Positions 1 through 55,056 of a stretch of DNA of 55,056 bases are shown here, piece after piece. The position numbers were made by a program, and so were the translations under genes. Origin of the DNA: a virus. The stretch is from UHGV virus genome UHGV-0290768, one strand, 5' to 3'. Below the pieces are notes generated by a model. That model made no database searches. It worked only from the letters and a program-made list of their open reading frames with translations, and had not been told where the DNA came from. Position 1 is the first letter of the stretch, and each line of letters starts with the position of its first letter.

Positions 1-120
1 CAGTTTAGCGCCTTCCATCAGACGTTCGAAGTCATAGGTCACGGTCTTGGCGGCGATAGCGCCTTCCATGCCTTTAACGATCAGGTCTGCGGCTTCGAAC
101 CACTGCATGTGGCGCAGCAG
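1..120 (-). pseudogene. icd: Displaced 3' fragment of isocitrate dehydrogenase (icdC-like), partial, continues beyond the window start
   Basis: Minus-strand translation [40 protein letters not shown] matches the Icd C-terminal region. An in-frame TAA immediately upstream (~nt 121-126) shows there is no 5' part. Confidence 0.8.
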
Positions 121-362
121 TAGTTAACCAATAACATCATTACTTGTTGATTTAAATAGAAAAATAGGTATTTTTGATACGTTATTAATGTGTTTAACCT
201 AAGCCCTAACCTATTGAAATTCATTAGTATATTTTCAGTTTTGATAACTGGCTTTGAGTTTTTCAGCTCATCTGGATAGTGAATTATTAGCCAATAATAC
301 TTACTCCCTGTGAGTCGGGTTAAATATCTCCGGTGTTATAACTCATGATTTGAAAAGAAAAT

Positions 363-385
363 AAAAAAGCCTCGGAATCCGAGGC
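363..385 (-). terminator. Rho-independent terminator ending the c-di-GMP cargo operon
   Basis: Hairpin gcctcgg-aatc-cgaggc at 369-385. The A-run at 363-368 on the plus strand gives a U-run after the stem on the minus strand. Confidence 0.6.
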
Positions 386-428
386 TTGCATTGGAACAAG
401 CAGCGCCATTATATTATTTAATTACTAC

Positions 429-752
429 CTACCATGTAATGATTGCTCTTTTCCAAACCATCTTCCCTTTTTGTTCTTCTTTTATATGCAGAATCCTTTT
501 CATAATAAAATATAAAATAAGAGAAAACGCAATGATAGCAATATATGTCCCGATACCGAAAGATACCAGAAACACAACCAAGATCCCAAAGAGCGCTACC
601 AGTAAAGATGTGCAGATAGATATCAAATTAATTGTCTTGCGTGCGTCTCTTGATACATAGCCTTTAATCTTAAATGCATGGCAGCTGTGGCAGTGGTCCT
701 CATTAATTAAAACTGCACCACAAAATGGACATTTATCATCTTTTGTTGTCAT
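429..752 (-). CDS. Small membrane protein with an N-terminal zinc ribbon (CPFCG...CHSC) and two TM helices
   Basis: ORF with CxxC-X11-CxxC followed by two hydrophobic helices. AT-rich. Last gene of the GGDEF-EAL operon. Confidence 0.5.
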   Translation of the reverse strand: MTTKDDKCPFCGAVLINEDHCHSCHAFKIKGYVSRDARKTINLISICTSLLVALFGILVVFLVSFGIGTYIAIIAFSLILYFIMKRILHIKEEQKGKMVWKRAIITW

Positions 753-757
753 TTATT

Positions 758-1450
758 TTAAATCTCAACATAATAGTAATCACTCATCCACAACCTTCCC
801 TGGCAAGCGCAATCAACAACAGAATGTACTTTATTTTTTTGTTCTATTGTCTCAACTCCCTCAACAATCACGAAATTGCAGTATGATTTTATTTTATTTA
901 TTCTTTTAAAGAATTCGCTCTCACTCTGTATTTCCCAGAAATAATCTTTATCAATTTTTATACATTCAAAATTAAACATATCAATAATTGTTAAACTTGT
1001 TAAGCCCCTTCCAAAATCATCCAGCCATACTGGACACAATTTTGAAAGACACTTTAAGTCAACCATACAGCATTTAGTATTGAATTCATGAAAATACTCG
1101 TTAATCTCAAAAGCAATGTTTTTTTGGTTTTTTAAGTAATCACCAATATATTTATCGTTCAAAATACAATCGCTAATAAGACTGTCAACATTCAACGAAA
1201 CTGGCTTGAACTTCAATTTTGATGCATCAAGCTTTTCAATTGTCAATATCTGTCTCTTAAACACATCGATTTTTTCTTTATCGCTTAGCGAACTGAAGCA
1301 AAAAAGACCTTCATTAGCATGATAATCATTAGCGTTCTTTTTTTTAACACTTTTCGTGAGAATTTCCCAAGAATGAATAGAACCATCTTTTTTGTAAGAT
1401 GGTTCTAAAACAAACCTGCAGGATTCTATTTCCACACTGTTCTTTAACAT
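758..1450 (-). CDS. Stand-alone EAL-domain protein (putative c-di-GMP phosphodiesterase)
   Basis: EAL-family motifs visible: LEP...EIL, N in SLNVD, EINE, WLDDFGRG, KIDK, VIVEGVETIEQ, CQG. AT-rich codon usage. Confidence 0.75.
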   Translation of the reverse strand: MLKNSVEIESCRFVLEPSYKKDGSIHSWEILTKSVKKKNANDYHANEGLFCFSSLSDKEKIDVFKRQILTIEKLDASKLKFKPVSLNVDSLISDCILNDKYIGDYLKNQKNIAFEINEYFHEFNTKCCMVDLKCLSKLCPVWLDDFGRGLTSLTIIDMFNFECIKIDKDYFWEIQSESEFFKRINKIKSYCNFVIVEGVETIEQKNKVHSVVDCACQGRLWMSDYYYVEI

Positions 1451-1804
1451 AAAAAAACACCGGAACTAAGAATATTCCTAATCGTGTCATAATTATAAAT
1501 GAAAGAGAAATAGTTTAAAATGATCGATCATGATCGAACAATAGGCGAAACCTATCACACACCACAAATTGATCGGTAATTCAAATCAAATGAAGTGAAA
1601 GGTAAAAATAGAAACATGATTTCATTATAAATCACAATAAAATCAATGTGTTATTAAATACTAATAATTTAGTGCCAGATATCAAACGTTAGTTGAGAAG
1701 GTGTCTGAGGTTCCGAAGAAATTTATCTGCGATGATAATGCCGATAATAAACAATCTTAAACATTTATAGGTATAACATCATAAGAAAATAAATCATTTC
1801 ATCT

Positions 1805-2884
1805 TCAATTATTCGGCATGCAATATCCATTCTTCCCATTACGTTTAACTTCATATAGCATTTGATCAGCCTCTTTGATCCACTCGATAATTGATTCTTT
1901 ATTTTCTGCACAAGAAATACCGATACTGACAGTACAGTACATATCTTTATGAGAAGGCAATGAAAGATCTTTAATTTTTTCCTGAATTATATCAACCATG
2001 GCTATAACAAGCTTGCTATTACTGTTGTTAACAATAATAGCCAACTCATCGCCACCAAATCTTGCTGGCACATCCTTCTCGCCAGCGCACTCTCGTAATA
2101 TTGTTGATATACGAGATAACACCGCATCACCTACTTCATGACCATATGTATCATTAATTTTTTTAAAATTATCAACATCAATGAGCATAAGATAAGAATG
2201 AATTCTCTTTTTACGCGTCGCACGAAAAGCACTTTCCATTTTTTGCTCAAAAAATCGGCGATTTGGCAGATCTAAGCCAGGATCCATCAGCGCCTGTTTT
2301 TCCAGTAACTCCCTTCTTTTCCTCAACTTTATAGATAAGTGCCTTGAAACAACACTCAACACTATGGGATAACAGGTTGCCAACGGTAAAGAAAGCAATA
2401 CCGTTCGGGTGCTGAATTCTATAGTATATCTGAAATCATTTGCTAACCAAACTATCACGAAACTAATCATCATCCACGTTAATGCTGGTTTTAAAATTTT
2501 CCATCCACCAGCAGCATAGCGATCAGCTATTTGAACGGAGATTATGAATAATGATGGAATTGGGCTAGCTTGCATTACGGCTATCCAGATACCAGCCCAG
2601 AATGAATCGAGTACCATATTCTTTTTTTCAGTACTCAGCATATCCTTCGACATCATGCTTGCCAGATAAGCAACCGATGGCCAGATGAGTGCATTCAAAA
2701 TTAACAGGGCTATCGTTATTTTTTGATGTGACTGTTCCTGGAGGACTGAATATATAGGAAGAAAGCAAAGAACGACACCTATCTGACGTAAGAAATATAC
2801 TCTTTTAATAAACGATGAATTTCTGTCAGATATGTATTTTTCATCTGGGAATTTTGTTAACATAGAAAGCCTATTATAAATCAC
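1805..2884 (-). CDS. Membrane-anchored GGDEF-domain diguanylate cyclase-like protein with a GGDEL active-site variant
   Basis: About six TM helices N-terminal. C-terminal GGDEF fold motifs DVDNFKKINDTYGHEVGD and RFGGDELAI. No RxxD I-site upstream of the GGDEL. Confidence 0.8.
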   Translation of the reverse strand: MIYNRLSMLTKFPDEKYISDRNSSFIKRVYFLRQIGVVLCFLPIYSVLQEQSHQKITIALLILNALIWPSVAYLASMMSKDMLSTEKKNMVLDSFWAGIWIAVMQASPIPSLFIISVQIADRYAAGGWKILKPALTWMMISFVIVWLANDFRYTIEFSTRTVLLSLPLATCYPIVLSVVSRHLSIKLRKRRELLEKQALMDPGLDLPNRRFFEQKMESAFRATRKKRIHSYLMLIDVDNFKKINDTYGHEVGDAVLSRISTILRECAGEKDVPARFGGDELAIIVNNSNSKLVIAMVDIIQEKIKDLSLPSHKDMYCTVSIGISCAENKESIIEWIKEADQMLYEVKRNGKNGYCMPNN

Positions 2885-3286
2885 TAAGAGCCGCTATCAC
2901 TTTAAACCACTAAATTACAAGATAAAACCGCCCTGCATTACAAAGTTATAACATGGATGTGAAAATTACAAGATTGCACTTCAATTATTGATAAACGTAT
3001 CAATAATAACATTTTGCATCCATTTTTCTTGAATCTATCTGTACGTTTTAAATCTAATGAAAGGCAATACTTTAGGGTTATATCCTTAAACATGAAAACC
3101 CAACAGGATTTATCACTATTGCATTATTAATTTTGGTAGATTATTAAACAACGACACAACATCTGACCAGTAAAAATTTACTTGAACTTACTTATCGTTT
3201 ACTCCAAATTATTCTGTGATGTACACAGCAATTAATGTCGTTACAGTTGCCCCCGGCAAGTGCCTCCGGGGGATTTTTTATGCTCC

Positions 3287-4714
3287 TCAACTTTCTAGTG
3301 CGTCAACTCGCCTAATCAAATCCTGCACCACTGTTACCAAATCGGCGATGATGGCCGTGTAATCAACATTCATCACCCTGAATTTTTCGCCATCGATCTC
3401 CTGCTCGATGCCGAGGAAAGTATACAGATCATCAGCTTTTTCAGCCTGCTGAGCGATAAAACCACGCCTCCGGCGCGTTTCGCCTTTCATATTGAACTCG
3501 CATACCCCCAGCGCATTAATGCGCCTGGAGGCCCCTTCCTGAGGTTCTGTAAACCCGTCTTTCAGACGAACGTCAGAACCGGTAGTCATGACGTCACCTT
3601 TGCCGGTGGTGATTGTGCCGCCAGGCCGAAATAGCCAGGCATCGGTTCTTCCGAAACCGTCAGAGTACAGCACGATCCGGTGCTCAGTGCCGACCTTCTC
3701 CTCCATGTACATTTGCACGTATGCGCCGTCCGGGTCGCCGTAAGCGCCTCTTCCCAACATCTGAGACCGCACAGGTGCGGCGGTGACCTGCTGGCCGACT
3801 GCGATATTGCCGGGCATTGTTGAGCCAGCGGTTAAATTGCCATCGGTAACTAACAAGCTGGCATTGCCCTGAATATTTAGTCTGTTTTGCCGGTCCTGGA
3901 TAATGCGGGCGGTAAAGTCGGCGATGCTGCCGTTGAAATGAAAGTCGATGTATGGCGTGCTCATCGATAGCTCTAACGCCTGGGAATACAGCTTGCCCTT
4001 TGCCGTATTATCGAAACCACCACCGACAACCAAATCTCCGGGCAACGTCGTCTGGTTATTGGTGCCAATAACGAGGATGTCATCAAAGGTGTCTGCCGGT
4101 GATACAGTGGTCGCTCTTGAACGCTGAACCCTAAACGGTGTTCCCGAGCCAACGGCAATTGTCCCGCCTTGCCCCTGTTTTTTGAGCAGAGCCAGATCTG
4201 AGTTCTTACCGAGTATAAAACCGGCATTATCGCTGGTTATAACCTGCGAGCCGTCGAGTTTGTTTCCTCCGGTGAGTTTTGCCAGCGCGTTAAGATCCGA
4301 GGCCTTCGCCATCCCGGCTATCGCCGGCACGGTCACCTGCTTTCCTGTGATCGGGTCAGTCAGGGTGATATTGCCGCTGCCGGTCAGGGCCATCGACCAG
4401 CCCTCCACTACACTACGCCAGAATGCAAACGCGCTGGCCAGCTGGTTAGCAAACGACGAGGTGCTGGCGGTTTCAGCGGTAATAATGCCGTAACTGGCAC
4501 CGGAAAATGCGGTGGTGATATTCCGGGTCAGCGTCAGTTGCGTGTCGCTGTCCACGGATTTGATCGCATACAGGTCAGCACTACCGCTGCGGTAGACCAC
4601 TAGAATCGACCCGGGCAGTATCCCCAGCGCCTCCTGTGACCATTTTGTTGTCGCACCTGTCACCCGTGCCTGCGACGCGGCACCCGTGACGGTACCGACT
4701 TCATACATCGCCAT
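3287..4714 (-). CDS. stf: Side tail fibre with a C-terminal intramolecular chaperone (peptidase S74 / endosialidase-chaperone type) domain
   Basis: Gly/Thr/Ser-rich fibre body. C-terminus has the S-D-x-R-L-K autocleavage motif (TTGSDVRLKDGFTEP) followed by a helical chaperone segment. Confidence 0.65.
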   Translation of the reverse strand: MAMYEVGTVTGAASQARVTGATTKWSQEALGILPGSILVVYRSGSADLYAIKSVDSDTQLTLTRNITTAFSGASYGIITAETASTSSFANQLASAFAFWRSVVEGWSMALTGSGNITLTDPITGKQVTVPAIAGMAKASDLNALAKLTGGNKLDGSQVITSDNAGFILGKNSDLALLKKQGQGGTIAVGSGTPFRVQRSRATTVSPADTFDDILVIGTNNQTTLPGDLVVGGGFDNTAKGKLYSQALELSMSTPYIDFHFNGSIADFTARIIQDRQNRLNIQGNASLLVTDGNLTAGSTMPGNIAVGQQVTAAPVRSQMLGRGAYGDPDGAYVQMYMEEKVGTEHRIVLYSDGFGRTDAWLFRPGGTITTGKGDVMTTGSDVRLKDGFTEPQEGASRRINALGVCEFNMKGETRRRRGFIAQQAEKADDLYTFLGIEQEIDGEKFRVMNVDYTAIIADLVTVVQDLIRRVDALES

Positions 4715-4782
4715 AATAAAGTTCCTCCTGGATGGTTTTCCCTGGAAAAAGAAAAGGCCCCTTGCGGGGCCATATATTGTTA

Positions 4783-7700
4783 TCAGGTTGATGAACCGCG
4801 AATTACGTTGTTATTGCGCGCGGCGAAGGCGTCGAATCTTGAGAGGATGGTTAATACCATCTGTCCGTTACGGTCCAGGTAACAGCCATATCGCAGAACA
4901 GCGTCGCCAGTACCGGCAGGGACGACAAATGACATGTTGTCTACGTTCATTGACTCTTGCGCCGTTAACAGGCGTGTTGCTCCACCTGTTTCATACATAA
5001 GCTCAATGCCTAGCTCCATACTGCCGCCACCAGACGTAGCGCCTGTGCCACGAAGAAGCATTGCATACGACAGATAGCCAGGATTCAGTCCGCCGTCAGC
5101 CCCTGGCGCGTAGGACATCCCCGCTCTTAGTTTCGCGCCGCCGTCGATAGTGATGCTATCCGTCTGGAGGAGTCCACCGCGAATATTGATCACCTGGTCG
5201 AAATTCTGCCGCCGGAACCGGGCCAGCTCAAACCACTGCCATGTAGCCTTCGGCACCTTGCGCGTGCGGTGCTGAGCGATGTTGATCGCAAATGACCCGA
5301 TGTCGCCCTCGATGTGGTTCGCATATACCGTCCCCTGGAACCAGCCGTCAGTCGCATAAACCGCACCGCGAACGATCACGTTGTTGAACTGCGAAGAGCC
5401 ATCCTTGGCGATACGCCAGCCGCGTGACCCGTCAACAAAGTCATTCGAGCGGATCTCGTTGCCGATCTTCGCGTTCGTGATGGAACCGTCCGCGATTTTG
5501 GTTGAGGTCAGGGAACTGTTTTTGATACGTGCCGTATCGATATACAGCTCATTGCCTTCGGCAACCATCACCGGAACAGCCGTCGCATTATTACGGTTAA
5601 ACAGCGAGAAGCGGTCAGCGTAGAGGATCATGTCGCTCGTTTCACCATTGCTGCCCAGCGTAATCCCCGCGCCAACATTCTTCCCGTTAACCGTCTCAAC
5701 CTTCATCGACCACAGCGAACTCACCGTACCATTCACATCCGCCACGGTTTTGGCGGTGTTCTGAACGGAAGCGCTGAGATCCCCGACACTGGATGTCAGG
5801 GTCGTCTGCTGCGTTGCCAGCGCCTCCAGTGCCGTTGCATGCGTCTGCTGGGTACTGGTGATACTGGCCACCGATTTAATCGTGTTGTCCAGCGTCGTCT
5901 GGTTTTTGATGTTGGCGGCCGCCTGCGCGTCAATCTGCGACTGAAGCGAGGTATTCAGGCTGGCCTGTGTGCTCTGGCTGTCGCTTAGCGTCTTCGCCAT
6001 GTTATCGACGCGGGAGTTGGCATTATCCACTTTCGTGGCCAGTGCCGTCTGCTGCTGCGCCTGGGCGGTGATTTTCCCTTCAGCATCCGTTACGCGAGCC
6101 GTCAGACCGCTCACGGCACTCGCCGTCGCGTCAGAGGCATCCTGTGCAGCTTTCGCATCGGTAACATCCGTGATAACCAGATCGTCGATATACAGCGAAT
6201 AACCGGGGGTGCCGCTGCCGGAGGCGCCACGGGTAGAGATCCAGACCACTGCGCGCGTTCTCCCATCCCCGTTGTTACTGGCAATACCCGTAAATTTCAC
6301 CCACTTATCACGCGCACCAAGAGCGGCTTCGCTGACAGTGACCGCCGACTGCCAGGAGTTTTGACCGGCAGCATTCAGTGAGTTAATGCCGACCAGCGTT
6401 GTCCACCCGGAGGATGGCGCCTGATCCGCCGGCATCATAGCCCAGAACTCAAACCGGAACTTCGCATCCTCACGGACTGACTGCCAGCTCCCAAGCTGTT
6501 TATCGCTGTTGCCGTTATTGTTCGCTCCTCGACTCACCTGCAGGCTCTTATTGCCGGTGAATTTCTGAGACGCCACCACAACGGCTGTGCCGTTCCCGCC
6601 CAGCACCTGGCCATCGCTGTAGCTTTCAAACGTACCGTCAACCCACGGATTAGCTCCCTGAGTGCGGATGGTATTGATGGTGCTGGTCAGCGACGTGATG
6701 CTCTGCGACTGGCTGGTGATGGTGTTTTCCACCTGGCTTACGCGACCGGTCAGTGAACTCACCGCGGACGTGTCAGCCTTTTTACCCAGCTCAGTATTCA
6801 TCGTGGTCAGGCTGTTCTGCAGACTGGTGAGCTGCTGCGACTGCGAATCCAGTTTACCCTCGGCAGACGTCATCCGGGTGGTCAACCCGGTGACAGCGCT
6901 TTGCTCGGCCTTCTTACTGACCGCCGCATTCGTGACGGCCAGATCGCCGCTGAGTTTCGTCAGCTGCTGCGCCTGGGTGGTGATAGCCCCTTCAGCAGCG
7001 GTGACGCGGGTATTCATCTGAGAAATGGCCCCGGCATTAGCTGCGATATCCTTTTCATCCGTAACATCGAGGACATGGAAATCATCGAAATACATTGCCC
7101 CCGCGCTGAGGAAGGTCGTCAGCTGGAAACTGGCCGTCGTGGTCTTCGTGGCTTTCCAGTCAAACGTTACCAGTTGCCAGCCAGAACTAAACGGTCCGTA
7201 GTTTGAGCCGACCAGCAGGCCAGTGCTGTCGGCCACACGAAACTTCGTGTTACCCGCATCTTTAATCGTGGTTCCCGGGTCCTGCTTCGCCCATACCCCC
7301 ATGCGGTAGGTACGACCCTGCGTGATACTGATTTCCTGCCCGACCAGGTTCGACTGGCCGGCGGACATTTTCAGCGCCTTGTTACCCGAATGCGGAACCT
7401 GTAAATCGGCCACCGTCGCGGTACTGCTCCAGCCGGTAAAGCCCGCCGCGCCGCGCTCAAAACTGCCGTTGACAATGAGGTTGCCCGGCATTTTCCCGCT
7501 GGCGTCAATATCCGCTGCCGTCTGGCTCAGGCTGTTACTAAGTTGCGTTAGAGAATCCCCTTGCGCACTGAGTGTTTTGCCCTGCTCAGTGACCTGGTTC
7601 TGCAGGGTGTTCATCGCGCTTGCGTCCGCTTTTTTGTTCACATTCGCATTCGTCGTGGCCAGATCGCTGCTGAGTTTTGTCAGCGCGCTGTTGGCTGCCG

Positions 7701-10700
7701 CGATGTCATTCCCCTGCTGCGTCACCGTGCCCTGCAGCTGCGTCACCGCTGTCGTGTCAGCCTTTTTACTCACCGTATCGTTTGTCGACCGGAGGCTGTT
7801 CTCCAGCGAGGTGGTCCGCGTGCCGATGCTGCTGAGCGTATCGCCCTGCTGGCTAACCGTGGTGGTCAGTGAATCCACCGCTTTTGCGGTCGCATCTGCG
7901 GTTTTCTGCGCACTGTTCGCCGCCGTCACGTTACGCATATGCCAGTCGGCAGCGTACCAGACAGTGCCGAACGGGCTGCTCTGATTAACCTGCAGGAACG
8001 GTCGCAGGAAGTTCGTGTCTGCCGGCACAGTAAAGCGCCAGGTGGCTCGTTTCCACGCGGTGGTGGTCTTGGTGTTTCCCCCGGACGCTCTCGCCCCAAT
8101 ACCACCAGTAGCAGTGGTGGCCCGACCGATGTAGAAATTAAAGTCAGCGCTGCCGGTACCACACGCTACCAGAGCAGACATTTCGTAAACGTCGCCCGGC
8201 GTCACAGCGATGTTGTTGATTTTTGGCACATGGTCTCGCCCGGCCAGCCGGACGGCATACCTGAACGGGCAGTCAGCCGGCACACCTGCAGCAGTGGTCT
8301 CCACCACGTCATAACCCATGCGGTCATACGCCGGATCAAATGACGGGTTTGGGATGTAATCATCCCCGGCAGCATTCCCGGCGTTCACCGCCGCCGTCAG
8401 GCTGACGATGTTGCTGTTGGCTGCCGTGAGGCCTGCCTCGGTTTTCTCCACCCGGCCAGTCAGCGCGTTAAGCGCCGTCTGATCCGCTTTGGTGTTGACC
8501 TTATCGGTGGTGCTGCTCAAATCGCCCTGCAGCTTCGTGATAGCCTGCCCCTGGGAGGTGATTTTGCCTTCCGCACTGGTGACCCGGCTGGTGAGATCAC
8601 TCACCGACTGCGCGCTGGCCTTTTGTGCCACGTTGTTGTTGGTGGTGTTCAGGCTGTTCTGCAGATTCGTGATGCTTTGAGACTGCGCGGTCAGTTGCCC
8701 CTCGGCATTCGTCACCCGACTGGTGAGGCTGTTAATGGCCGATGTGTTCGCGGTAATACCGCTGGCCGCATCATCCGGACTCGGTGACCAGTCAGTCATC
8801 ACGGTCCCGGTTTCCAGCTGAGGGCGACAGAGCCAGACTTCTTTGTCGGCAGACGTCGCGCTTTCCAGACGCGCGGCAATCAGCCGTTTGGTGCCACTGG
8901 TGGCAGGAATAACCCATTTCACCCAGTAACGCGCCCATGCGGTGGTCAGTTTCGTGACCGCCTTGCCGTCACCGGCCCCGCCTTTAACCCCCTGGCTGGT
9001 TTCCGTGGTGGTAGTGTTCGACGGGTTATAAAAATAACTCGCCATTTCCTGTCCGTTATAGGCACCTTTCGCATAGAAGCTGAATACAAATTCAGTACGC
9101 CCGGTAACATCCAGCGTCTGTTCATCCAGCTGGATATAACCGGATGCACCTTTCGCCAGCCGGGTGTAGGCCACGCGGTCGCCCAGATACGTCTCTGTGG
9201 CGTGGCGGCTGCTCCAACCCTCCAGTGTGTCCGCATTGCGGATAAGGTTGGTCCCGCCAACGGCCAGGGAGGAAAAGTTGTTTTCCAGGTTCGTCAGCGC
9301 GCTGCTTTGCGTGGTCAGATCCCTGCCATGCTGTTCAACGGTGTTCTGCAGGCTCTGCAGCGCCGTTGCATCAGCCTTCTTCGCCACATTGCTGTTAGTC
9401 GTGTTCAGGCTGTTCTGCAGGTTGGTCAGGCTGTCTCCCTGCGATTTCAGGCTGCCTTCGGTAGCCGTCACGCGGGTCGTCAGATTCGTCAGCGCGCTGG
9501 CATCGGCCTTGCCGCTGATATCCTTACCAAGTTGCGTCACATCCGACTGCAGCTTCGTGATCGCGCTGCCCTGAGACGTAATATTCTTCCCGTTCTGCGT
9601 GACTGACGCGGACAGACTGGAAAGCGCCTGCGCATTCGCATCGGCGGCATCGAGCGCCGCTTTCGCATCGGTCACGTCACTGATGATCAGATCATCAATC
9701 AGGAAGGCGTCACCCAGGCGAACTTTTGGTGTATTCGGGATGGAGATCCTCACCATTGCCTGTTTCAGTGCGGTTCGGTTGTTGGTCAGATAGCCACTGA
9801 CCTTTGTCCAGTTGTCCACCGACAACTCGGAGACTTTCACGTTCAGGCCAGGCCACGACCAGCCATTGGCAGAATCCTGGAAGGAAAATCCTAGCACCAT
9901 ATAAACGGTCGGATCGGCGGTCGAGCCAGCCGGCAACTTAACCCACGCCTCCACGTAATAGACCGCATTATCGCGAACCTGCATACCAGAAAAGATATGG
10001 GTATCGTTATTATCCGTCGCGTTCGGGTTGTACTCCGTACTGCGCGTAACACGCAGGCTTTTGGTCCCGCTGTGCGCAGCTTCACTGGTGATAACAGCGC
10101 GGGCATTACTGAGAACATCGCCGACGGCATAGGATTCAAAACTGCCGTCCGGCAGTACATTGGCTCCCCGTGTTGCCTGTTGCTTCAGCGATGTATTCAG
10201 CCTGGTCAGGCTGTCGGCCTGGCTACGGATATCCTTTTCAGTCTGGGTAACCCGGTTGGTCAGTGAACTGACCGCCGACGCATCAGCCTTCTTCGCCACA
10301 TCGCCTTTGACCCCTTCCAGCGCGTTATTCAGCGCCGTGATGGATTGCCCCTGTGATGTCAGGGTGTTCCCCTGGTTCGTCACCGTCCCGGTCAGAGACG
10401 AAACAGCATCGCTGGTCGCCTTGATGTTGGTTTCATCGGTGATATCAAAAACCCGGACGGAATCGAGCCAGATTTCACCGTTTGTCGGATGAGAATAAAG
10501 TTTGAAGTTCTGCCCGTCCGCGCCGGCAGCCGTCAATCCGGTTTCCCAGGTGATGGTTTGCCAGTCAGTGGTCAGCGTGACCGTTTTATCCTCATACGTA
10601 CTGTCCGTCTGGCCGATTTTGTTCTGGCGACGGATCAGCAGACTCATCGCGCCGGAAACACCTTTGGCCTTCACCACCACGCGGTACTTGCGCTGGCCAT

Positions 10701-13700
10701 TCAGCGGCACCGGCTTGTTGTTGTTGGAGAAGATCCCCGGACTGGTGTTAGTCGTCCGGTTCAGCCGGACCCCCGCTTTCCCGTCCCCGAAATCGCCAAA
10801 AGTCACACCGGCTGGATACTGAATATCCCAGGCAGTGCTGCCCTGTAGAAAATCAAAGTTCGGGATCAGGTTGTCGCCAGCGTTGCGGGTGGCCGTCAGC
10901 ACATTCGCCAGATTTGTCAGCTGCTGGCTCTGTGTGGTCAGTTTCCCTTCCGCCTCTGTCACCCGGTTATCGACCGAAGTCAGTGCCGTTGCATCGGCCT
11001 TCTTCGACACATTGCTGTTGGTCGTGTTCAGGCTGTTCTGCAGGTTCGTCAGCTGCTGGCTTTGCGAGGTGATAGCCCCTTCCGCTGTGCTGACCCGGCT
11101 CGTCAGTCCGGTAACGGCGCCGGCGGTGGCATCGATGTCCACCCGGTCGGTAACGTCAGTGACGTAAAAATCATCGAAGTAGCGGCTGCCGCTAATCAGA
11201 TAGTTGCTCAGCGTCACCGGCAGGCTGGCTGTCTCCGTCGCTTTCCAGCGACCGGAAACCAGGGTCCAGTTTGTCCCCACCGTGCCGCTGTTGTACGGAC
11301 GCTCAAAGACCGGCTGGCCGGCAGAGTTACCGATCCGCAACTTGTTGTTCCCCGCGCCATTATCCGTCGTCGCTCCGGGTTCCTTGACCCACACCCCGAT
11401 TTCATAGGTTCGCCCCTGAACAAACGGGATGTATTGCCCCGGAGACACGCTCCCCGGATCAACCTTCAGCGCCCGCGTCCCGCTGTGAGGAGCGGAAACC
11501 TCCACCACACTGGTCGCGGTTGACCGCCCGGTATAACCATCCAGCCCGCGTTCAAATGATGGATTCGCGACCAGGTTACCCGGTATCTGACCGCTGGCAT
11601 CGATATCTGCCGCAACCTGCGAGAGACTGTTCGACAGGTTCGTCAGCGAATTGCTCTGGCTCTCCAGCGTTTTGCCCTGCTGCGTCACTTTCGTGTCGAG
11701 CGTGGCCAGCGCTGTCGCATCGGCTTTCTGCGCCAGCGCTTTATCGGTATTCGCCAGATTTCCGGTCAGTTTCGTGATGGCGCTGTTTGCAGCCGTCAGG
11801 TCGTTGCCCAGCTGTGTGACGGTATTGGTCAAATCCTGCACCGCTGTCGCATCAGCCTTTTTGGCCACTGCGGCATTGGTGGTTGCCAGCCCGTTTTCCA
11901 GCTGAGTTGTCCGGTTGCCGGTCGAGGTCAGCAGATTACCCTGTTGCGTCACGGTGGTGGTCAGCGAGTCAACCGCCGCCGCCGTGGCATCCGCAGTATC
12001 CTGAACCTTTTGCGCCGCTGTCACATTTCGCATATGCCAGTCCGTAACGAACCATACGGTGCCATACGGGCTGTTCTGCGAGATCTGCAGGAACGGGCGG
12101 ATATAACCCCTGTCTACCATCGCCTGCGTGACCTTGAAGCGCCAGGTGGTTCTCTGCCAGGTCGCGGAAGGTGATTTTCCGCCCCCCGCCATGAGTGGCG
12201 CACCGGTGCTCGTATCTGGCCGAACGGCGGTGCCAACATACAGATTAAAATTCGCCGTGCCGGCGCCGCAGGCAACCAGTGCGCTGATCTCAATCACATC
12301 GTTAAGCGTGGCCGGGAACGCGGCAAAGTTAGGATGGTGATCCCGGCTGGCAATTCTGGCCGCATAACCATACGGGCAGCCAGGAGGGACCTCCTCAGCC
12401 GTCGTGGATACGACGCTAAACCCCATCTGGTCGTAAGCCGGGTCAAATGTCGGGTTGGGAATTAAATCCCCGCCTGATGCGTTTCCGGCCCGTACAGCGG
12501 ATTTCAGCGAGGTAATGTTGGCGTTAGCAGCCGTCAGCCCGGATTCCGTCTTCTCCACTCGTCCGGTTAGCGAGTTCATCGCCGTCTGATCCGCTTTGCT
12601 GGCCACGTTCGCGTCTGTCTGCGTCAGCGCATTCCGGAGCTGGGTGATGTTCTGCGAATTGCTGACCACATCGTTGCCAATCTGGCTGACATTCGAGCTG
12701 AGCACGCCGGCTGCGTTTGCCAGCGCGGAAACCCCGAGACCGGAGTACATCTCAGCAACCTTGTCTGACAGCTTCAGACCCAGGTTGATATACGCCTGGC
12801 CGGTCCACTGATTCACCAGAAACTCAACGGTGTTCCAGCCGGCTTTCAGTTCAAAACTGACGGTATTCCAGCTGGCGTTACCCCAGGCGACCTGAACCCC
12901 ATTCACAAATATGGCGCCGGTATCATCAAAAACCCTGGCGCCGGGCGCCAGTGTGATGGTGGTATCTGCGGCCACTTTCACCTGGCAGGAATACAGCGCG
13001 ATCAGATAGCTGCCGGCGGATGTAAAGTCCAGTTTGGCCGCGTCGGCCACCTCATCCACGACCGTTGGCGCCACGGCGCGAACATCGCTGAATGACGGGA
13101 CTGTCCCGGCGTTAGCCAGCTGCACCGGATAGAGTCGACGGGACCAGCGATTCGGCTGGCCATTGACCAGTTGATTCGACAGGCTGGTGATGCTGTCAGT
13201 ATTGCTGCGAATATCCTGCCCGTTTTGCTCTACCTGCTGCGTTAAGGCAGTGACCGCAGCCGCTTCGGCTTTCTTCGCCAGCGCGGCATTTGTCGTGCCC
13301 AAATCGCTCGTCAGTTTCGTGATGGACTGACCCTGGCTGGTTATCCTGTCACCCTGCTGGGTAACAACAGACTGCAGCCCGCTCAGCGCCTCATTAGTAC
13401 CAGCCAGTCCCGTTTCCGTCTGGCCAACCCGGTTAGTGAGCGATGTTAACGCGGCGCCCTGCGATGTCAGCGTGGCGCCCTGTTGCTCAACTTTCTGCGT
13501 CAGGGACGTCAGCGCGGCTGCATCGGCTTTTTTCCCGAGGCTGGTTTCCAGGCCACCGATACGGCTCGCCTGCGCGCTCTGCTCTGTCGTCAGAGAACTC
13601 AGTTCACCAGAAACAGCAGCTTTGTTATCGTTAAACTGCGTCTGCAGGGACTCTCTGGCCTTAACTTCCGCCGAGATGGCGGTAACGCGTGCGGTTTTTT

Positions 13701-16700
13701 CCTGGTACAGCAGCCCGGAGGTGACTTTCTCCAGATCGCTCCCATCATAGGAGCCACGCATCTGCGCCGCCAGCGTGCTGCGTGCCTGCGCTTCGGCAGT
13801 CAGCGCGTTACTCAGCGTACTGCGCACATCCTGCAAAGCCGCCGTACTGGCGCCGGGTGCTGGCCGGCCAACGGCGATCCAGTCGAATTCGATAAAGTTG
13901 CTGGCATCCTGCTGGTTCGTCAGGTCCAGGCGAATACGATCAATGTTCCCTGTCCACGGAATATCACGCACCGTCAGGGTTGCCACCCCATCGGCATATT
14001 CCGGCTCAGCAACAATGTATCGCTTCGTGTTATTGAAGTTTTCGCCGGCAGACACCCAGCGGATCTCACCCGCCCAGACTGGTTTGCCGGTTTTACGAAA
14101 GCGCAGCATGATGAAACGGTACGCCGCACCATCGACAGCTAGCCCGCCAGGAGAGGTAATGTACGGATCGGTGGCGCTGTCCGCCGGGCGTAACCAGCCA
14201 TCCTGTGACACACCCGGTACGCCGGCGCTGCCGGTCCAGCCCTCGGTCGTCTGATTGTTGAAATGCCAGATAACCTGCGAATCGAACTGGATATTAGCGC
14301 CGGCAGCGAGGCTGGACATTTCCCGCGCCAGATTTTCATCGGCGGTCTTCATCACCTGAGTCAGGCTCTCGATACTCGCCTCAATCCCCTGCGTTGCCGC
14401 CAGCAGTTCATCAGCGGCCTGTGACGCCTTCGCGTTAACATCGGCGATACGATCCGCGGTCTCCTGCTTCACCGCATTGGTCAGCGTGGTGTTGACCTGA
14501 GACAGCGACTGCTTCAGGCCATTTTCGGCAGTCTTTATCTGCGCATTCAATGCGGCATCGCCGTCGACCAGCGTTTTGCTGACCCTGGCAATCTCCAGGT
14601 CGATGGTGGCGTTGATTTCCGCAGCCGTATCGGTGACTGACTGTCTTACCTGGGTGATGCTGTCGGTCAGCGACTTGTTCACAGTTGCGATCTGCTTGTT
14701 CGCATCTGCGACGGCGGATTTTGCCTCCTGAACGCCTTTGTTTGCCTGAGCCAGACCAGAATCGAGAGCCTCATTGACCGAGGTGATCTCATCCGTGATG
14801 GTTTTATTCACGGCGGAGATCTTCCCGTCAACATCAGCCGTGATGCTTTTCGCCGATGCATCAATATCCTGGCTGACCTGCTTCGCCTGGTCTTCGGCTT
14901 CCTTACGCAGAGCTTCAGCGGTCTGCTCCAGTTCCTGCTGCGTATTGCGGATACCTTCCTGTGTTTCGCTAATGGTGCGCTGCGTTTCCTCCCAGGCAGC
15001 CGTATCCTTGATCGCGTCGGTCAGGTTTTCGTAGTAGTCATCAAAGTTATCGCTGGCCATCCCCTGGACCCAGCCGGTCCACGGGCTTTCATTGCCAAGA
15101 CGATCCACAAGGCGCGCCCGATACCAGAATTCTGCGCCCATACTGAGGCCCATCTGCTGATAGCTTTTCCCCGGATAGGCCACGTCTGATAACGGCATCG
15201 GCGCACTGCCGTCCTGATTTTTGCTGTACTGTAGTTCCGTGCGCAGCGTATCCCCGGAGCCGGTCGGGAACTCCCAGCTAACCTGGACCCCATGAACCAG
15301 AGAACGGGTTGCCAGCGCCAGCGGCGCCAGCGGCTCGCCGACCTTGCCGGTCAGGGTTTTCTCTTCGGAATACGCCCAGCCGCTCGAGATCTCCGCCGCA
15401 TTGATCGCACGGACGCGAACCAGGTAACGACCGGCATAAATGCCGCTGACCTCAAACGAGGTGGTCGAGCTGCGCGGTACATTAATCCAGTTCCCGTCGT
15501 TACGGCGCCACTGTGCCTCGTAGGCAATAGCGCCGCTGACCGCTGACCAGTTAACCTGCATCGTTTCGACGCTGATCCCCTGATTCACGACCGAGCGGGA
15601 TGTGATGACAATATCGTCAGGAGGTGACTGGTTGCCCGCCGGCAATACGCTAACCGGGCGCTGGTCGATAATAGCGCCGGTATCGATGCGGGGGAATTTA
15701 TCCGGGTCATGTGCCACGCCGGTGATCGTGAGGGTGGCATCGCTGTTCTCTTTTACCCCTGTAACCCGGTACTGCTGCAGGAAGAGGTCATCGGATTCAA
15801 TGGCCCAGACGCATTCCCGTTCTGGTGTCTCACTGTACGCCGTTGTGACCGTAATCTGCCGACGTCCGTTAACAGCCTGAATTGTCCGGCTCTGTGAGAT
15901 CCCGGATGGCAGGTTTAGCTGGAGGCGGTCGCCAGGTTTGGCATCCACATCACGATCCAGCGTAATCACCCGGCCATTCACCGCGCTGATTCGCCCGCCG
16001 TTTACCCGTCCGGCCAGCAACTCATCCGCCAGGGCAATGATATAACCGGGTTGAGGAATGCGACCGTCCAGCCCGACATCAATTTCGACCATGCGGTCCT
16101 TATTGTTGGTCAGTATGCCCCACAGCCCCTTACGGTGGGCTTCGCTCTGGCGCGTACAGCCAATCGCCGTCATTTCGAGCTGGTTAAAACTGTAGCGGGA
16201 AACCAGTTCCGGGATAAATGCCGGCTCCATTGCATCAGCATAAGCATTATCCGGATCAGACCAGGAAACCAGGGCGTTGGTGTACCGAACCTGGCTGCTG
16301 CTGCTCGAATAACGGGGTTTGCCGATAATATTGGCGCGCGTATAGGTAAAATCGACATCACGCGGCATATCAGCCTGCACAACAATCTGCTCACCGTTCC
16401 AGCAGGTCATGCCCCGGAAAATGGCGGCAAAGTCTCGCAGCACGGTGTAAGCATCGTTGCGTTCCTGGACATAGACGTTACAGGTATAGCGCGGCTCCAT
16501 GCCGTCACCACCGCGCCCGTCAGGAACCAGCTGATCGCAGTACTGTGCAATCTGGTACAACGTCCATTTCGAAATATTGGCGCTGCTCAGACGATTACCG
16601 AGACCAAAACGGTCAGCTATAACAATGTCGTAATAGATCCAGGCCGGGTTATCCGTCCAGGCCCATTTAAACCCGCCGGTCCAGACGCCGGTATATTCGC

Positions 16701-36540: not shown

Positions 36541-36656
36541 ATGTGTGGTGCCGGGTGCCTCCCGGTAAGTCTGCTCCAGTCAACAGACCCGCGTGTGTGC
36601 TCAAAGAAAAAATTGACTGGTCGCCCCACCGCACAGGGGGATTCACCACACACCCA
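36541..36656 (+). repeat. Structured ~115-nt repeat element, copy A
   Basis: Shares a 24-nt 5' module (gtgtggtgccgggtgcctcccggt) and a ~37-nt 3' module (tgactggtcgcccc.ccgca.agggggattcaccaca) with copy B. The termini are complementary (gtgtggtg / caccacac). Confidence 0.6.
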
Positions 36657-37495: not shown

Positions 37496-37610
37496 GTGTG
37501 GTGCCGGGTGCCTCCCGGTGAGCATGCCCCAGTCGGCATGGCCCGCGCTGCATTTACAGGTTTCTGTAACTGACTGGTCGCCCCTCCGCATAGGGGGATT
37601 CACCACATCA
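37496..37610 (+). repeat. Structured ~115-nt repeat element, copy B
   Basis: Same conserved 5' and 3' modules as copy A, with a divergent middle. Direct orientation, 955 bp from copy A. Confidence 0.6.
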
Positions 37611-53540: not shown

Positions 53541-53786
53541 ATGCTCCAGATGTTAACCCTTGAAGAGTGGGCAAACGAGAAATACAGAAGCAATCCTCCA
53601 AGTGTTTCCACTCTCAGGAATTATGCTAAACAGAATATGTTTTCTCCCCCAGCCAAAAAAGAAGGTCGATTCTGGCGCGTCAGGGAGGATGCTGAGTTGG
53701 TCGGTACATTGACCACTCCTGTAGTAAAGAAAAGCGACCCTGTTCTTTTGCAGAGGATTTTGAACGATGGCTGCCAGACCACGTAA
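53541..53786 (+). CDS. xis: Excisionase (lambda Xis-like)
   Basis: MLTLEEWANEKYRSNPPSVSTLRNYAKQNMFSPPAKKEGRFWRV parallels lambda Xis MYLTLQEWNARQRRPRSLETVRRWVRECRIFPPPVKDGREYLF. Overlaps the int start. The track ORF starts at 53517. Confidence 0.7.
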   Translation: MLQMLTLEEWANEKYRSNPPSVSTLRNYAKQNMFSPPAKKEGRFWRVREDAELVGTLTTPVVKKSDPVLLQRILNDGCQTT

Positions 53787-54894
53787 AAATAATATATCTA
53801 TTCCAAATTTATACCCGCTCTACAGTAGAAAGGTTAATAAAGTATACTGGCGTTATAAGCACCCGATAACTGGTAAGTTTCATAGTCTAGGTACAGATGA
53901 AGCAGAGGCCACGGCAATAGCTATTGAAGCAAATAAAAGACTGGCGGAACAACAAACCCGCCAGATAATGGCAATCACTGACAGAATATCCACCAACTCA
54001 GGAAAATCAATATCAACTAACACCTGGCTTGAACGTTACTGGAAGATTCAGCAGGAAAGATTAAAGTCCGGAGATATTAAAGAAAACACTATCAAACAAA
54101 AAGCAAAACCAGTATCTCTGCTTAAGGAACGTGTAGGAATGAAATTAATATCCGCTGTCAATGTTCGAGATGTTGCGCAAATTCTTGATGAATATTTAGC
54201 GGAGGGACAACCCAGAATGGCTCAGGTCATTCGCTCTGTCCTAATAGATGTTTTTAAAGAAGCTCAGCATGCGGGAGAAGTACCTCCTGGTTATAACCCT
54301 GCACTAGCAACTAAACAACCTCGTAGAAAGATCACTCGCCAGCGCCTCACTCTGGAGGAATGGCAAAAGATTTTTGATATAGCCGATGAAAATCACAAAT
54401 ACATGGGGAACGCCATGCTTTTAGCCATAGTAACAGGACAGCGACTAGGTGATATATCCCGTATGAAATTCTCGGACATCTGGGACGATCATCTACACGT
54501 TGAGCAAGAGAAAACCGGAAGCAAAATCGCTATACCATTAGCTCTGCGTTGCAACGCAATCAACTGGAGCCTCCGAGATGTAATCAGTCGTTGCCGGGAT
54601 TATGCAGTAAGCCCTTATTTGGTTCATTTCTTTAGAACCACCTCACAGGCTGAGCGAGGAGCGCAGGTGAAACCCAGAACACTGACCATGAATTTCAGCA
54701 AGGCAAGAGACAGTGCAGATATTGACTGGGGACAAGGTACACCGGCAACTTTCCATGAACAAAGATCGCTTTCCGAGCGGTTATATAAAGCCCAGGGTAT
54801 AAACACGAAAGATTTACTTGGACATAAAACTCAACAACAAACGGATAGGTACCATGATGATCGAGGTAAGGGGTGGACAACGGTGGCCTTATGA
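53767..54894 (+). CDS. int: Tyrosine integrase (lambda / e14 IntE type)
   Basis: R...HxxR...Y catalytic signature (TGQRLGD, HEQRSLSERLY, LLGHKTQQQTDRYHD). 3' end next to the att/icd junction. Confidence 0.9.
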   Translation: MAARPRKNNISIPNLYPLYSRKVNKVYWRYKHPITGKFHSLGTDEAEATAIAIEANKRLAEQQTRQIMAITDRISTNSGKSISTNTWLERYWKIQQERLKSGDIKENTIKQKAKPVSLLKERVGMKLISAVNVRDVAQILDEYLAEGQPRMAQVIRSVLIDVFKEAQHAGEVPPGYNPALATKQPRRKITRQRLTLEEWQKIFDIADENHKYMGNAMLLAIVTGQRLGDISRMKFSDIWDDHLHVEQEKTGSKIAIPLALRCNAINWSLRDVISRCRDYAVSPYLVHFFRTTSQAERGAQVKPRTLTMNFSKARDSADIDWGQGTPATFHEQRSLSERLYKAQGINTKDLLGHKTQQQTDRYHDDRGKGWTTVAL

Positions 54895-54995: not shown

Positions 54996-55017
54996 TAATC
55001 TGGGGGCCAGATTACAT

Positions 55018-55056
55018 GTTCGCGATGATCGCGTCGCCAAACTCGCTACATTTCAG
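55018..55056 (-). CDS. icd: 3' end of the reconstituted isocitrate dehydrogenase gene (partial, continues beyond the window end)
   Basis: Minus-strand translation LKCSEFGDAIIENM* is the Icd C-terminus. Confidence 0.85.

Follow-up and report, generated by a model that had tools for sequence, protein, structure and literature searches.

A probably host-derived cassette of predicted c-di-GMP enzymes beside attP in a temperate Klebsiella phage

Cassette and phage context

The window, i.e., the whole 55,056-nucleotide stretch that was analyzed (UHGV-0290768), has three co-oriented genes on its minus strand between a tail-fiber gene and a fragment of icd (Table 1). They occupy positions 429-2884 and encode a GGDEF protein, an EAL protein, and a small zinc-ribbon protein, here called ZnTM. 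An earlier note on this DNA had proposed these genes and domains; the open reading frame list, Pfam, and a cysteine motif establish both. MK416021 and NZ_CP116219 both label the product of the tail-fiber gene a tail fiber domain-containing protein.

The two window ends join seamlessly inside an icd-like segment, and NZ_CP116219, a circular record, runs through this junction without a break. The window is therefore a complete circular (circularly permuted) phage genome that has its own icd piece at attP. Translated across the junction, this fragment has 37 residues before the junction and, after it, LKCSEFGDAIIANM and a stop codon. Across attP lies the integrase gene, which NZ_CP116219 and NZ_CP030728 list as a site-specific integrase. 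Circular phage genomes show the arrangement int, attP, ZnTM, EAL, cyclase (DGC), tail fiber. The phage is a temperate Klebsiella lambdoid phage that integrates into icd. The three genes do lie between the tail fiber and icd and next to an attachment site, as first described, and the site is the attP of a circular genome rather than attL.

Table 1. Features of the cassette and of the adjoining phage regions, in window coordinates.
Feature	Position	Strand	Basis or details
Phage-borne icd 3' fragment, first part, attP region	1..120 (about)	-	82-97% identity to the E. coli icd 3' end
Cargo cassette unit	362..3293	-	Cyclase gene with upstream leader, EAL gene, ZnTM gene, terminator
Intrinsic terminator closing the cassette	367..387	-	9-bp stem (6 G-C pairs), then TTTTATTTTC
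Small membrane protein ZnTM, 107 aa	429..752	-	Zinc ribbon, hydrophobic stretch
Stand-alone EAL-domain protein, 230 aa, PdeH-like, motif EIL; predicted c-di-GMP phosphodiesterase	758..1450	-	Pfam, alignments
Spacer between cyclase and EAL genes, 28% GC	1451..1804	-	354 bp, AT-rich
Membrane diguanylate cyclase (predicted), MASE2 and GGDEF, 352 aa	1805..2863	-	Pfam, homologue starts
Leader/promoter region of the cyclase gene, conserved, non-coding	2864..3293	-	DNA kept with the cassette in all contexts
Tail-fiber gene, last structural gene upstream of the cassette	3287..4714	-	Open reading frame list
Integrase, 375 aa, other side of attP	53767..54894	+	Open reading frame list
End of the phage-borne icd fragment: 14 codons and stop	55012..55056	-	Continuation across the circular junction

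The comparison with prophage e14 made in the earlier note holds: E. coli K-12 carries pinE and mcrA between the e14 tail-fiber genes and icdC. The slot is variable, and parAB occupies it in N15-like relatives having the same tail genes. The cargo described here differs from the e14 morons in being composed of signaling enzymes rather than restriction or defense genes.

The cassette is 2.9 kb long. Its GC content is 33.7%, compared with 51.1% for the rest of the phage; values range from 29 to 40% across the region, versus 50-60% in the tail genes. Alignments to Enterobacter wuhouensis and to the plasmids pBM374-1 and pKmfe267-2 end at window positions 362 or 408 on one side and 3293 or 3373 on the other. 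The limits are the same in phage, plasmid, and chromosomal copies, and the terminator coincides with the cassette boundary of non-phage copies. A moron is recognized as a discrete unit between core phage genes that is of foreign composition, has transcription signals of its own, and is absent from related phages. The cassette agrees with this description, with a terminator as its transcription signal, and relatives with the same tail genes lack it. It is a self-contained, horizontally mobile, AT-rich cargo of this kind, and its place is the variable slot that separates attP from the last tail gene.

The leader of the cyclase gene has a promoter-like site at 2900..2873. It also contains a 51-aa open reading frame (2938-3093), annotated in MK416021, that was considered as a fourth gene and rejected because close relatives have stops or frameshifts in it. 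The spacer downstream of the cyclase gene probably holds the promoter of the EAL-ZnTM pair. A promoter-like TTTAAA-16-TATAAT lies at 1519..1492 within it, and plasmid copies without the cyclase retain homology up to window position 1647. The promoter scan gave 16 sites against 14.9 expected from shuffled sequence, i.e., no excess. The spacer gave no terminator-like site, and a relaxed-threshold Rfam scan of positions 1-3400 gave no c-di-GMP riboswitch or RNA family, with three sub-threshold chance matches only.

The three genes had been described as an operon. They probably do not form a single one, because a 354-bp AT-rich gap follows the cyclase gene and the EAL-ZnTM pair occurs without the cyclase. 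Within the pair, the ZnTM gene starts 5 bp past the EAL stop codon.

The three proteins

The open reading frame of the cyclase extends over 1805-2884 from its first GTG; the ATG at 2863 is the start in homologues and in RefSeq. Pfam MASE2 (PF05230) matches residues 28-115 with 87.8 bits (cutoff 25, E 5e-25), and about five hydrophobic segments lie within residues 22-173. Pfam GGDEF (PF00990) matches residues 199-352 with 148.3 bits (cutoff 23.8, E 2e-43) and spans positions 2-160 of the 161 in the profile. TIGR00254 gives 157 bits against a cutoff of 37.4. The NCBIfam AdrA equivalog NF007599 gives 188.6 bits, which is under its cutoff of 402.

AdrA/DgcC, the activator of cellulose synthesis in E. 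coli and Salmonella, has the same two-domain architecture and length and is 28% identical to the cassette cyclase over the full length. AdrA/DgcC possesses GGDEF and an RGSD I-site, whereas the cassette cyclase has GGDEL and GEKD. The former belongs to the psiF-proC locus; the latter is found on mobile DNA and is not an orthologue. Motifs of the cassette cyclase are DVDNFKKINDTYGHEVGD, RFGGDEL, and GEKD at the RxxD position, five residues before GG(D/E)EF. The RxxD I-site is thus absent and the core intact, both as the earlier note had stated. When aligned to E. coli DgcC, the cyclase retains the catalytic residues: D229, D231, K234, N237, D246, R268, G270, G271, D272, E273, and K340 are common to the two proteins. 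The metal, catalytic, and substrate set in PleD numbering is D327, K332, N335, D344, R366, E370, E371, K442, and R446. Of this set, the cassette cyclase has D229, K234, N237, D246, R268, D272, E273, and K340; the equivalent of R446 is K344, a conservative change, K being the residue in the Klebsiella subclade (KRNGKNG).

GGDEL agrees with GG(D/E)EF at four of five positions, a non-catalytic F being replaced by L. Previously described as rare, it proves to be the signature of a whole MASE2-GGDEF clade, carried by 106 of 116 homologues, the most distant at about 30% identity (candidates were gathered by shared 5-residue words, which may somewhat inflate this share among the most distant matches). 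The genera represented are Klebsiella, Raoultella, Pantoea, Erwinia, and Acinetobacter. In most members, GxxD replaces RxxD. Together, GGDEL and I-site loss mark out a MASE2 clade that is large (more than 100 protein clusters) and conserved. Because GGDEL is so widely retained and the dN/dS of the cyclase is about 0.08, it is a maintained state and not decay.

Members of this clade from Pantoea sp. YR343 (PMI39_04070), Erwinia, and Acinetobacter are 43-49% identical to the cassette cyclase over 97% of its length. They share with it GGDEL and the loss of the I-site arginine but have no EAL or ZnTM neighbors. The Pantoea protein is given as MASE2-GGDEL (PMC8294551), and no biochemically characterized member of the clade was found. 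The Pantoea and Acinetobacter genes are solitary and chromosomal, and neither EAL, ZnTM, nor a shared context was found in their neighborhoods. Genomic context in the wider clade therefore gives no functional clue.

Judged by its residues, the cyclase probably makes c-di-GMP. The B. subtilis enzyme DgcP has GGEEL and complements a triple cyclase mutant (PMC5422440), and a 2026 study holds that GGDEL/M domains are probably still active (PMC12900916). The MASE2-GGDEL clade has been scored as degenerate in motif-based censuses; on motif grounds, Cruz et al. 2012 placed the pKP187 and Kp342 copies, including KPK_A0039, in that class (PMC3431978). According to PMC4331095, which cites Malone 2007, WspR loses its activity when this F is changed to L.

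The WspR report and the degenerate class of KPK_A0039 would suit a net phosphodiesterase module. The GGDEL protein would then be dead or very weak and serve as a membrane sensor, scaffold, or c-di-GMP/GTP-binding partner, and the EAL protein, as the sole active enzyme, would lower c-di-GMP in the lysogen. The plasmid-borne EAL-ZnTM pairs without a cyclase, which indicate that the pair can work alone, also fit this reading. It is nevertheless unlikely. The cyclase keeps all catalytic and substrate residues bar the non-catalytic F, GGDEL is fixed in a large clade under strong purifying selection, and a GGEEL enzyme, DgcP, is functional. Degenerate GGDEF receptors usually retain the I-site for binding, whereas this clade has lost it.

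The EAL protein matches Pfam EAL (PF00563) over residues 81-221 only, with 41.2 bits (cutoff 31.3, E 2e-10); the N-terminal EIL segment was aligned to PdeH by MAFFT. The best NCBIfam match is the PdeH equivalog NF008617, at 84 bits (E 1e-23) and under the cutoff of 190. The ten catalytic positions E29, N87, E115, E118, D144, D145, K165, E197, E200, and Q217 are all present. They are the same as in the active PdeH of E. coli and do not vary among 16 family members, the most distant of which is 58% identical. YdiV (RflP) departs at five of them (E115, D144, D145, K165, and E197), all retained here. The intact EAL motifs claimed before are thus confirmed at the sequence level. Loop 6 reads DDFGRGLTSL versus DFG(T/A)GYSS, and EILTK has K for R after the motif; active PdeH also deviates (DDFGTGMANF, ELLTV).

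PdeH (YhjH) of E. coli and Salmonella is likewise an EAL-only protein, of about 230-255 aa, with the same catalytic residues and E-[IL]-L-T motif. It is 24% identical to the cassette protein. Unlike PdeH, the cassette protein lies outside the flagellar regulon context, and its gene is coupled to that of a small membrane protein. In the enterobacterial stand-alone EAL subclass, STM1344 and STM1697 are closer to active YhjH than other EALs are (PMC9275015). The cassette protein belongs to this subclass and probably degrades c-di-GMP, given its catalytic set.

The AF2 model of the protein has an EAL fold (pLDDT 85.9, pTM 0.84). By Foldseek, the nearest solved folds are the non-enzymatic anti-FlhDC factors YdiV and STM1697 (TM 0.75-0.77, rmsd 2.4-2.8 Å); canonical phosphodiesterases give TM 0.52-0.68. 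STM1697 and YdiV are also the best PDB sequence matches (E 2e-5 to 4e-5). As PdeH is absent from the PDB matches, this ranking may lean towards inactive relatives. These matches and the subclass membership could point to a mainly protein-protein role, as in YdiV and STM1697, with a transcription factor, ZnTM, or a MASE2 partner as the bound protein. Such a role is quite unlikely. The ten positions match PdeH and not YdiV, leaving the protein outside the degenerate class, and their invariance would be unexpected if catalysis were dispensable. Most Klebsiella lack flagella, so the YdiV target FlhDC is absent, which also counts against it. At the sequence level, the two proteins do not resemble the dead cyclase and degenerate, YdiV-like EAL protein that the earlier note had named as its contrary case.

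ZnTM has an N-terminal zinc ribbon, CPFCG...CHSC (C8, C11, C21, and C24), followed by a hydrophobic stretch at residues 39-90 with room for two transmembrane helices. Conserved elements are HAFxIKGYVSRxxR and a basic C-terminal tail, KGKxVWKRAIITW. Its AF2 model is weak (pTM 0.35) and draws the hydrophobic stretch as a single helix, 35-106. No match was obtained among Pfam, NCBIfam, PADLOC, or PHROG families. The family is small and uncharacterized, with 12 representatives among 1.84 billion proteins, and tends to sit at prophage ends. Distant relatives are stand-alone genes adjoining prophage int/xis and match phrog_10292, a phage family with no assigned function.

Distribution and selection

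The same 2.9-kb cassette is found in the Raoultella chromosome (between cls and yciI), in Klebsiella genomic islands, and on IncF plasmids, and the order of the triad is retained in all of these and in the phage. In K. variicola, it lies at prophage ends at two other chromosomal sites. Plasmids also carry the EAL-ZnTM pair without the cyclase. In E. coli genomes, the cassette was not found, and the icd fragment alone matches; an E. coli origin of the window was rejected on this ground. Among phage records, MK416021 is the sole carrier of any part of the cassette, and it ends at the cyclase gene. Protein clusters of the cassette genes hold from hundreds to about 1,500 member sequences. The cassette is derived from bacterial (host) DNA and is not phage-specific; the enzyme pair, earlier taken to be the prophage's own, is not a phage invention.

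Purifying selection acts on all three genes, with dN/dS well below 1 over dS up to more than 2. Values are 0.07-0.31 for the EAL gene and 0.26-0.48 for ZnTM. Single genes decay occasionally: pBM374-1 has a pseudogene in place of the EAL gene, and R. scottii has a truncated ZnTM. A toxin-antitoxin-like dependence among the three genes was ruled out on this ground, the EAL gene or ZnTM being decayed individually in some copies.

In enterobacteria, DNA of 34% GC is often silenced. The cassette could be silent, hitch-hiking DNA with no function for phage or lysogen, as its high AT content, a promoter signal not above chance, and the occasional gene decay might suggest. This is highly improbable given the selection on all three genes and the retention of the triad order in phage, plasmid, island, and chromosome.

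Proposed function

With moderate confidence, the best reading of the cassette is a c-di-GMP turnover module that came from a host and travels as phage cargo, its probable role being lysogenic conversion. The MASE2-GGDEL cyclase keeps all residues known to bind metal, GTP phosphates, and guanine, and has no product-inhibition site. With these residues intact and the I-site absent, it is therefore predicted to be a feedback-free producer of c-di-GMP when its MASE2 sensor is triggered. The soluble PdeH-like EAL protein would hydrolyze c-di-GMP and so limit or localize the output of the cyclase. ZnTM may act with the EAL protein at the membrane, e.g., by tethering or regulating it. Expressed from the promoters of the cassette itself, as we infer, active enzymes would add an input/output pair to the c-di-GMP network of the lysogen, and surface and biofilm traits would be converted. 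The earlier note had proposed that the pair could rewire host biofilm or motility or act in superinfection control.

DosC-DosP (dgcO-pdeO) is an operon that pairs a cyclase with a phosphodiesterase. The side-by-side genes of the cassette resemble it and suggest a local make-and-break module. The systems differ in their sensors, heme globin and PAS in DosC-DosP versus MASE2 or none in the cassette, and the cassette genes are 354 bp apart and separable. The enzymes are ordinary members of known families, and cyclase, phosphodiesterase, and moron are all textbook categories.

The slot occupied by the cassette holds the defense gene mcrA in e14, and distant relatives of ZnTM are phage-end genes. 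The set of GGDEF palm domain, hydrolase, and small membrane protein is also loosely like signal-based defense systems. The cassette, or ZnTM, might accordingly be a phage-exclusion or abortive-infection device, either with ZnTM as a membrane effector armed or disarmed by the cyclase-EAL nucleotide signal, or with c-di-GMP-driven surface changes that block adsorption. This has little likelihood. Against PADLOC-DB v2, the GGDEF protein gives a weak Cas10-palm similarity (E about 0.01), the EAL protein and ZnTM have no match, and distant ZnTM relatives give zinc-ribbon noise. ZnTM has no recognized nucleotide-binding motif, and in Raoultella the cassette has a conserved chromosomal location. The host already has more than 25 c-di-GMP enzymes (PMC3431978), and the cyclase is an unremarkable one of AdrA type; a c-di-GMP-gated effector would meet the housekeeping signal.

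It is very unlikely that the whole triad forms a c-di-GMP-based exclusion or abortive-infection system to the benefit of the phage, in which the I-site-less cyclase would sense envelope perturbation, the EAL protein would localize the signal, and ZnTM would be the effector or anchor. Such a system would be of a type that has yet to be described. The trigger at the envelope could be, e.g., a superinfecting phage, and the signal would be kept short-lived as well as local by the EAL protein. In that case, ZnTM would stand for a new family of small membrane proteins of phage ends, with stand-alone relatives beside prophage integrases.

Read as a turnover module, the cassette bears on a network that governs type 3 fimbriae and biofilm in Klebsiella (PMC3431978). 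If it is active and expressed, a widespread Klebsiella phage adds a feedback-insensitive cyclase and a dedicated phosphodiesterase to that network. Prophages and plasmids would thereby have a concrete means of altering the surface behavior of a clinical pathogen.

PHROGs include GGDEF and EAL families, none with an assigned function, and the cassette ZnTM has no match there. Other phage records do have a GGDEF or EAL gene on its own, among them Bacillus phage G, SP-15, Acetobacter phiAX1, and P1-like phages, the last with a ydiV-like gene.

Identity of the phage and layout of the cassette

On the best-supported reading, the AT-rich cassette is a c-di-GMP make-and-break module of host origin that the phage carries as cargo. 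A sensor cyclase free of feedback inhibition would make c-di-GMP, a dedicated phosphodiesterase (the EAL protein) would break it down, and a small zinc-ribbon protein (ZnTM) would act as a membrane partner. Expression of the module would not depend on the late operon, and the lysogen would change in traits that are under c-di-GMP control. The components are of known kinds, namely a moron, an AdrA-type cyclase, and a PdeH-type phosphodiesterase, and are joined by a small protein that is uncharacterised. RefSeq annotates the genes, and other phage records have single GGDEF or EAL genes. A 2012 catalogue (PMC3431978) gives the copies of pKP187 and Kp342 (KPK_A0039/A0040 and KPK_3356/3355) as "degenerate" plasmid and chromosomal copies and does not mention phage. 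Our literature search found no published description of this triad, its phage carriage, or the activity of the GGDEL clade.

By nucleotide identity, the window is a Klebsiella phage. Positions 1805-3300 match Klebsiella phage ST846-OXA48phi9.1 at 99.9% identity; the record of that phage ends at the cyclase gene. Positions 300-3200 match two Klebsiella records labelled "plasmid" at 99.7-99.8% identity, and one of the two is a circular phage genome of 53 kb. When the last 400 and first 500 bases of the window are joined, the resulting 900 bp align to this circular record in one unbroken run at 99.2%. Translation over the joint (1-120 / 55012-55056) reads ...ERLMEGAKL up to the junction, then LKCSEFGDAIIANM and a stop codon, which is the C-terminus of isocitrate dehydrogenase. 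Because the ends are contiguous and the joint lies within an icd-like segment, the window comprises the entire genome of the phage in circularly permuted form. The earlier note had placed the cassette beside attL, at the left end of a prophage. This needs correction: the icd fragment is a phage-borne copy at attP, and the window is not a prophage with flanking host DNA.

The gene order is integrase, attP with the icd fragment, ZnTM, EAL gene, cyclase, and tail fibre. The analogy drawn in the note with e14 holds: this E. coli element also integrates at icd and has pinE and mcrA in the same slot. In N15-like linear plasmid prophages with the same tail-fibre and tip genes, parAB occupies the cassette slot.

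Features of the cassette and the phage integrase (window coordinates)
Feature	Position	Strand	Remarks
Cyclase (MASE2-GGDEF protein with GGDEL signature)	1805-2884 from first GTG; 1805-2863 from ATG	-	352 aa from ATG
EAL protein	758-1450	-	230 aa, soluble; EAL domain 41.2 bits against a cutoff of 31.3
ZnTM	429-752	-	107 aa; starts 5 bp past the EAL stop codon
Intrinsic terminator, strong	387-367	-	directly after ZnTM
Integrase	53767-54894		adjoins the attP/icd fragment

The ORF listing has three consecutive minus-strand frames at 429-2884, where the earlier note had placed its three co-oriented genes. Homologues and the RefSeq annotation start the cyclase at the ATG at 2863, and about five hydrophobic segments lie in its residues 22-173. 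The spacer between the cyclase and EAL genes is 354 bp with 28% GC. The cassette has 33.7% GC versus 51% for the phage, and the chromosomal cassettes of Raoultella and of the K. grimontii type are as AT-rich as the phage copy.

Upstream of the cyclase, a 51-aa frame at 2938-3093 on the minus strand is annotated as a hypothetical protein in MK416021. Stops or frameshifts break this frame in close relatives, and it was rejected as a gene; the segment is probably a non-coding leader that precedes the cyclase. At 3240-3290, just past the tail-fibre stop codon, a G+C-rich hairpin (CCCCCGG...CCGGGGG) marks the upstream boundary of the cassette; the minus strand has an A-run here and the plus strand a T-run. 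By its sequence the hairpin resembles a terminator of antisense transcription on the plus strand. Its loop was read as 9 nt, and the terminator scan, with a limit of 8 nt, does not include it.

Predicted catalytic state of the two enzymes

The cyclase is probably active and free of product inhibition, as judged from its residues. In alignment with E. coli DgcC, it keeps D229, D231, K234, N237, D246, R268, G270, G271, D272, E273, and K340, which correspond to the residues through which PleD contacts metal, phosphate, and guanine. The intact core without an RxxD I-site, which the note had described, is borne out. The deviations are L274 for the F of GGDEF, K344 at the position of PleD R446, and GEKD for the I-site. 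The note had called the GGDEL signature rare, but the deviations are clade characters and not lesions. GGDEL is found in 106 of the 116 homologues with a readable motif (the search picks candidates by the words they have in common, and this could bias the weakest matches towards GGDEL), and most have GxxD. These GGDEL proteins occur in Klebsiella, Raoultella, Enterobacter, Pantoea, Erwinia, Kosakonia, and Acinetobacter, down to ~30% identity, and only the most distant branch has the GGDEF/RxxD state. Against seven diverged copies, with dS up to 2.6, the dN/dS of the cyclase is 0.07-0.12.

The literature on GGDEL-type activity is divided. B. subtilis DgcP, with GGEEL, is a working cyclase (PMC5422440), and a 2026 analysis regards GGDEL/M as probably active (PMC12900916). 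A passage of PMC4331095 that cites Malone 2007 has WspR inactivated by the F to L change, which speaks for a rival reading in which the cyclase is dead and the cassette acts as a net phosphodiesterase. A MASE2-GGDEL protein is also listed in Pantoea YR343. An active cyclase remains the preferred reading.

The EAL protein is best matched among NCBIfam models by PdeH/YhjH (E 1e-23, below the equivalog cutoff). Among solved structures, both its sequence and its fold come nearest to STM1697 and YdiV, which are non-enzymatic, with TM-scores of 0.75-0.77 versus 0.52-0.68 to canonical EAL domains; PdeH is absent among its PDB sequence matches. This proximity speaks for a second rival, in which the protein works through protein-protein contacts. 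It also assigns the protein to the enterobacterial subclass of stand-alone EAL proteins, which includes the active YhjH/PdeH (PMC9275015). At the residue level, the protein matches PdeH. E29, N87, E115, E118, D144, D145, K165, E197, E200, and Q217 are all present and are invariant in 16 family members, whereas YdiV/RflP has lost five of these ten. The deviations EILTK and DDFGRGLTSL are of the same kind as those in PdeH itself. The catalytic motifs are thus all retained in the PdeH/YdiV alignment, as the note had held. With this set kept, a dN/dS of 0.07-0.31, and a confident AF2 model (pLDDT 86, pTM 0.84), the YdiV-like degeneration that the note had named as counter-evidence was not found.

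The zinc-ribbon protein and mobility of the cassette

The zinc ribbon of ZnTM, CPFCG...CxxCHAF, is invariant. A hydrophobic stretch at residues 39-90 has the length to accommodate two transmembrane helices, and the basic tail is conserved. It has no family match in Pfam, NCBIfam, PADLOC, or PHROG. The protein forms 35 clusters at 90% identity, and all clusters with a named source are from Klebsiella. Among 1.84 billion proteins, only 12 representatives reach E≤1e-3. Distant members share the plan CPFC-x9-10-CxxCGA, two helices, and (V/I)WK(R/K). They are stand-alone proteins of ~110 aa, none adjoins an EAL gene, and some match phrog_10292, a family with no assigned function. Two directly adjoin a prophage xis-int pair, and by their neighbourhoods the distant homologues form a small uncharacterised family with a leaning towards prophage ends. 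At L105-L107, three of the compared genomic loci, the homologue (locus 4001-4333) lies beside the excisionase-integrase genes and near DUF481 and nadE. At L111, a short contig, DUF481 and nadE are the only neighbours visible (locus 1316-1645).

These stand-alone homologues speak for a rival reading of the cassette as an exclusion or defence device with ZnTM at its centre. Every copy found in the Klebsiella/Raoultella clade has the ZnTM gene directly behind the EAL gene. In pBM374-1 the EAL gene is a pseudogene, and in R. scottii the ZnTM gene is truncated; therefore, the pair shows no addiction-type dependence. The same two losses speak for the rival of silent cargo, and the dN/dS of ZnTM (0.26-0.48) and of the two enzymes speaks against it. 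The c-di-GMP module remains the best-supported reading.

Judged by alignment limits, the cassette is a mobile unit that is found beyond phages too. In Enterobacter wuhouensis, pBM374-1 (K. variicola), and pKmfe267-2 (K. michiganensis), alignment is confined to 362/408-3293/3373. One limit is the terminator that follows ZnTM; the other falls shortly before the stop codon of the tail fibre. The cassette is present on IncF plasmids, beside a cloacin-type bacteriocin in a Klebsiella genomic island, and in K. variicola at prophage ends, which lie at two further chromosomal sites. Plasmid pKP187 (NC_011282.1, IncFIB; locus 7759-12454) matches 57-4771 at 90.7%. An unannotated tail-fibre gene and a portion of the icd fragment flank the cassette there, which marks this copy as a relic left when a phage integrated or recombined into the plasmid. 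Other plasmids carry the EAL and ZnTM genes without the cyclase, with homology extending ~200 bp upstream of the EAL gene, which is an argument for a separate promoter of this pair.

On the Raoultella chromosome, the full triad (L095, 6001-8435) lies between cls/yciY and yciI. Yersinia thracica has a stand-alone EAL gene with 28% identity in the same interval (L009, 5971-6702). From this shared position, cls-yciI may be an old chromosomal home of the EAL lineage.

Tail module and repeats

Klebsiella phage KpLi5 and 48ST307 are linear plasmid prophages that resemble N15/phiKO2 and encode protelomerase and ParAB, and their tail-fibre and tip genes are 94-96% identical to those of the window. The common genes indicate that the tail module has been exchanged between integrating and telomere phages. 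The tip gene is a single frame of 4234 aa at 4783-17487 on the minus strand, encoding a GpJ-like tail-tip/host-specificity protein with DUF1983. As lambdoid tip proteins go, this one is unusually large, and many families of direct repeats (49-110 nt) lie inside its gene, spaced at 132, 756, 858, and 1623 nt. Elsewhere, two pairs of 39-40-nt direct repeats with 90-93% identity lie ~955 bp apart at 36543-36650 and 37496-37607, in a region poor in long open reading frames.
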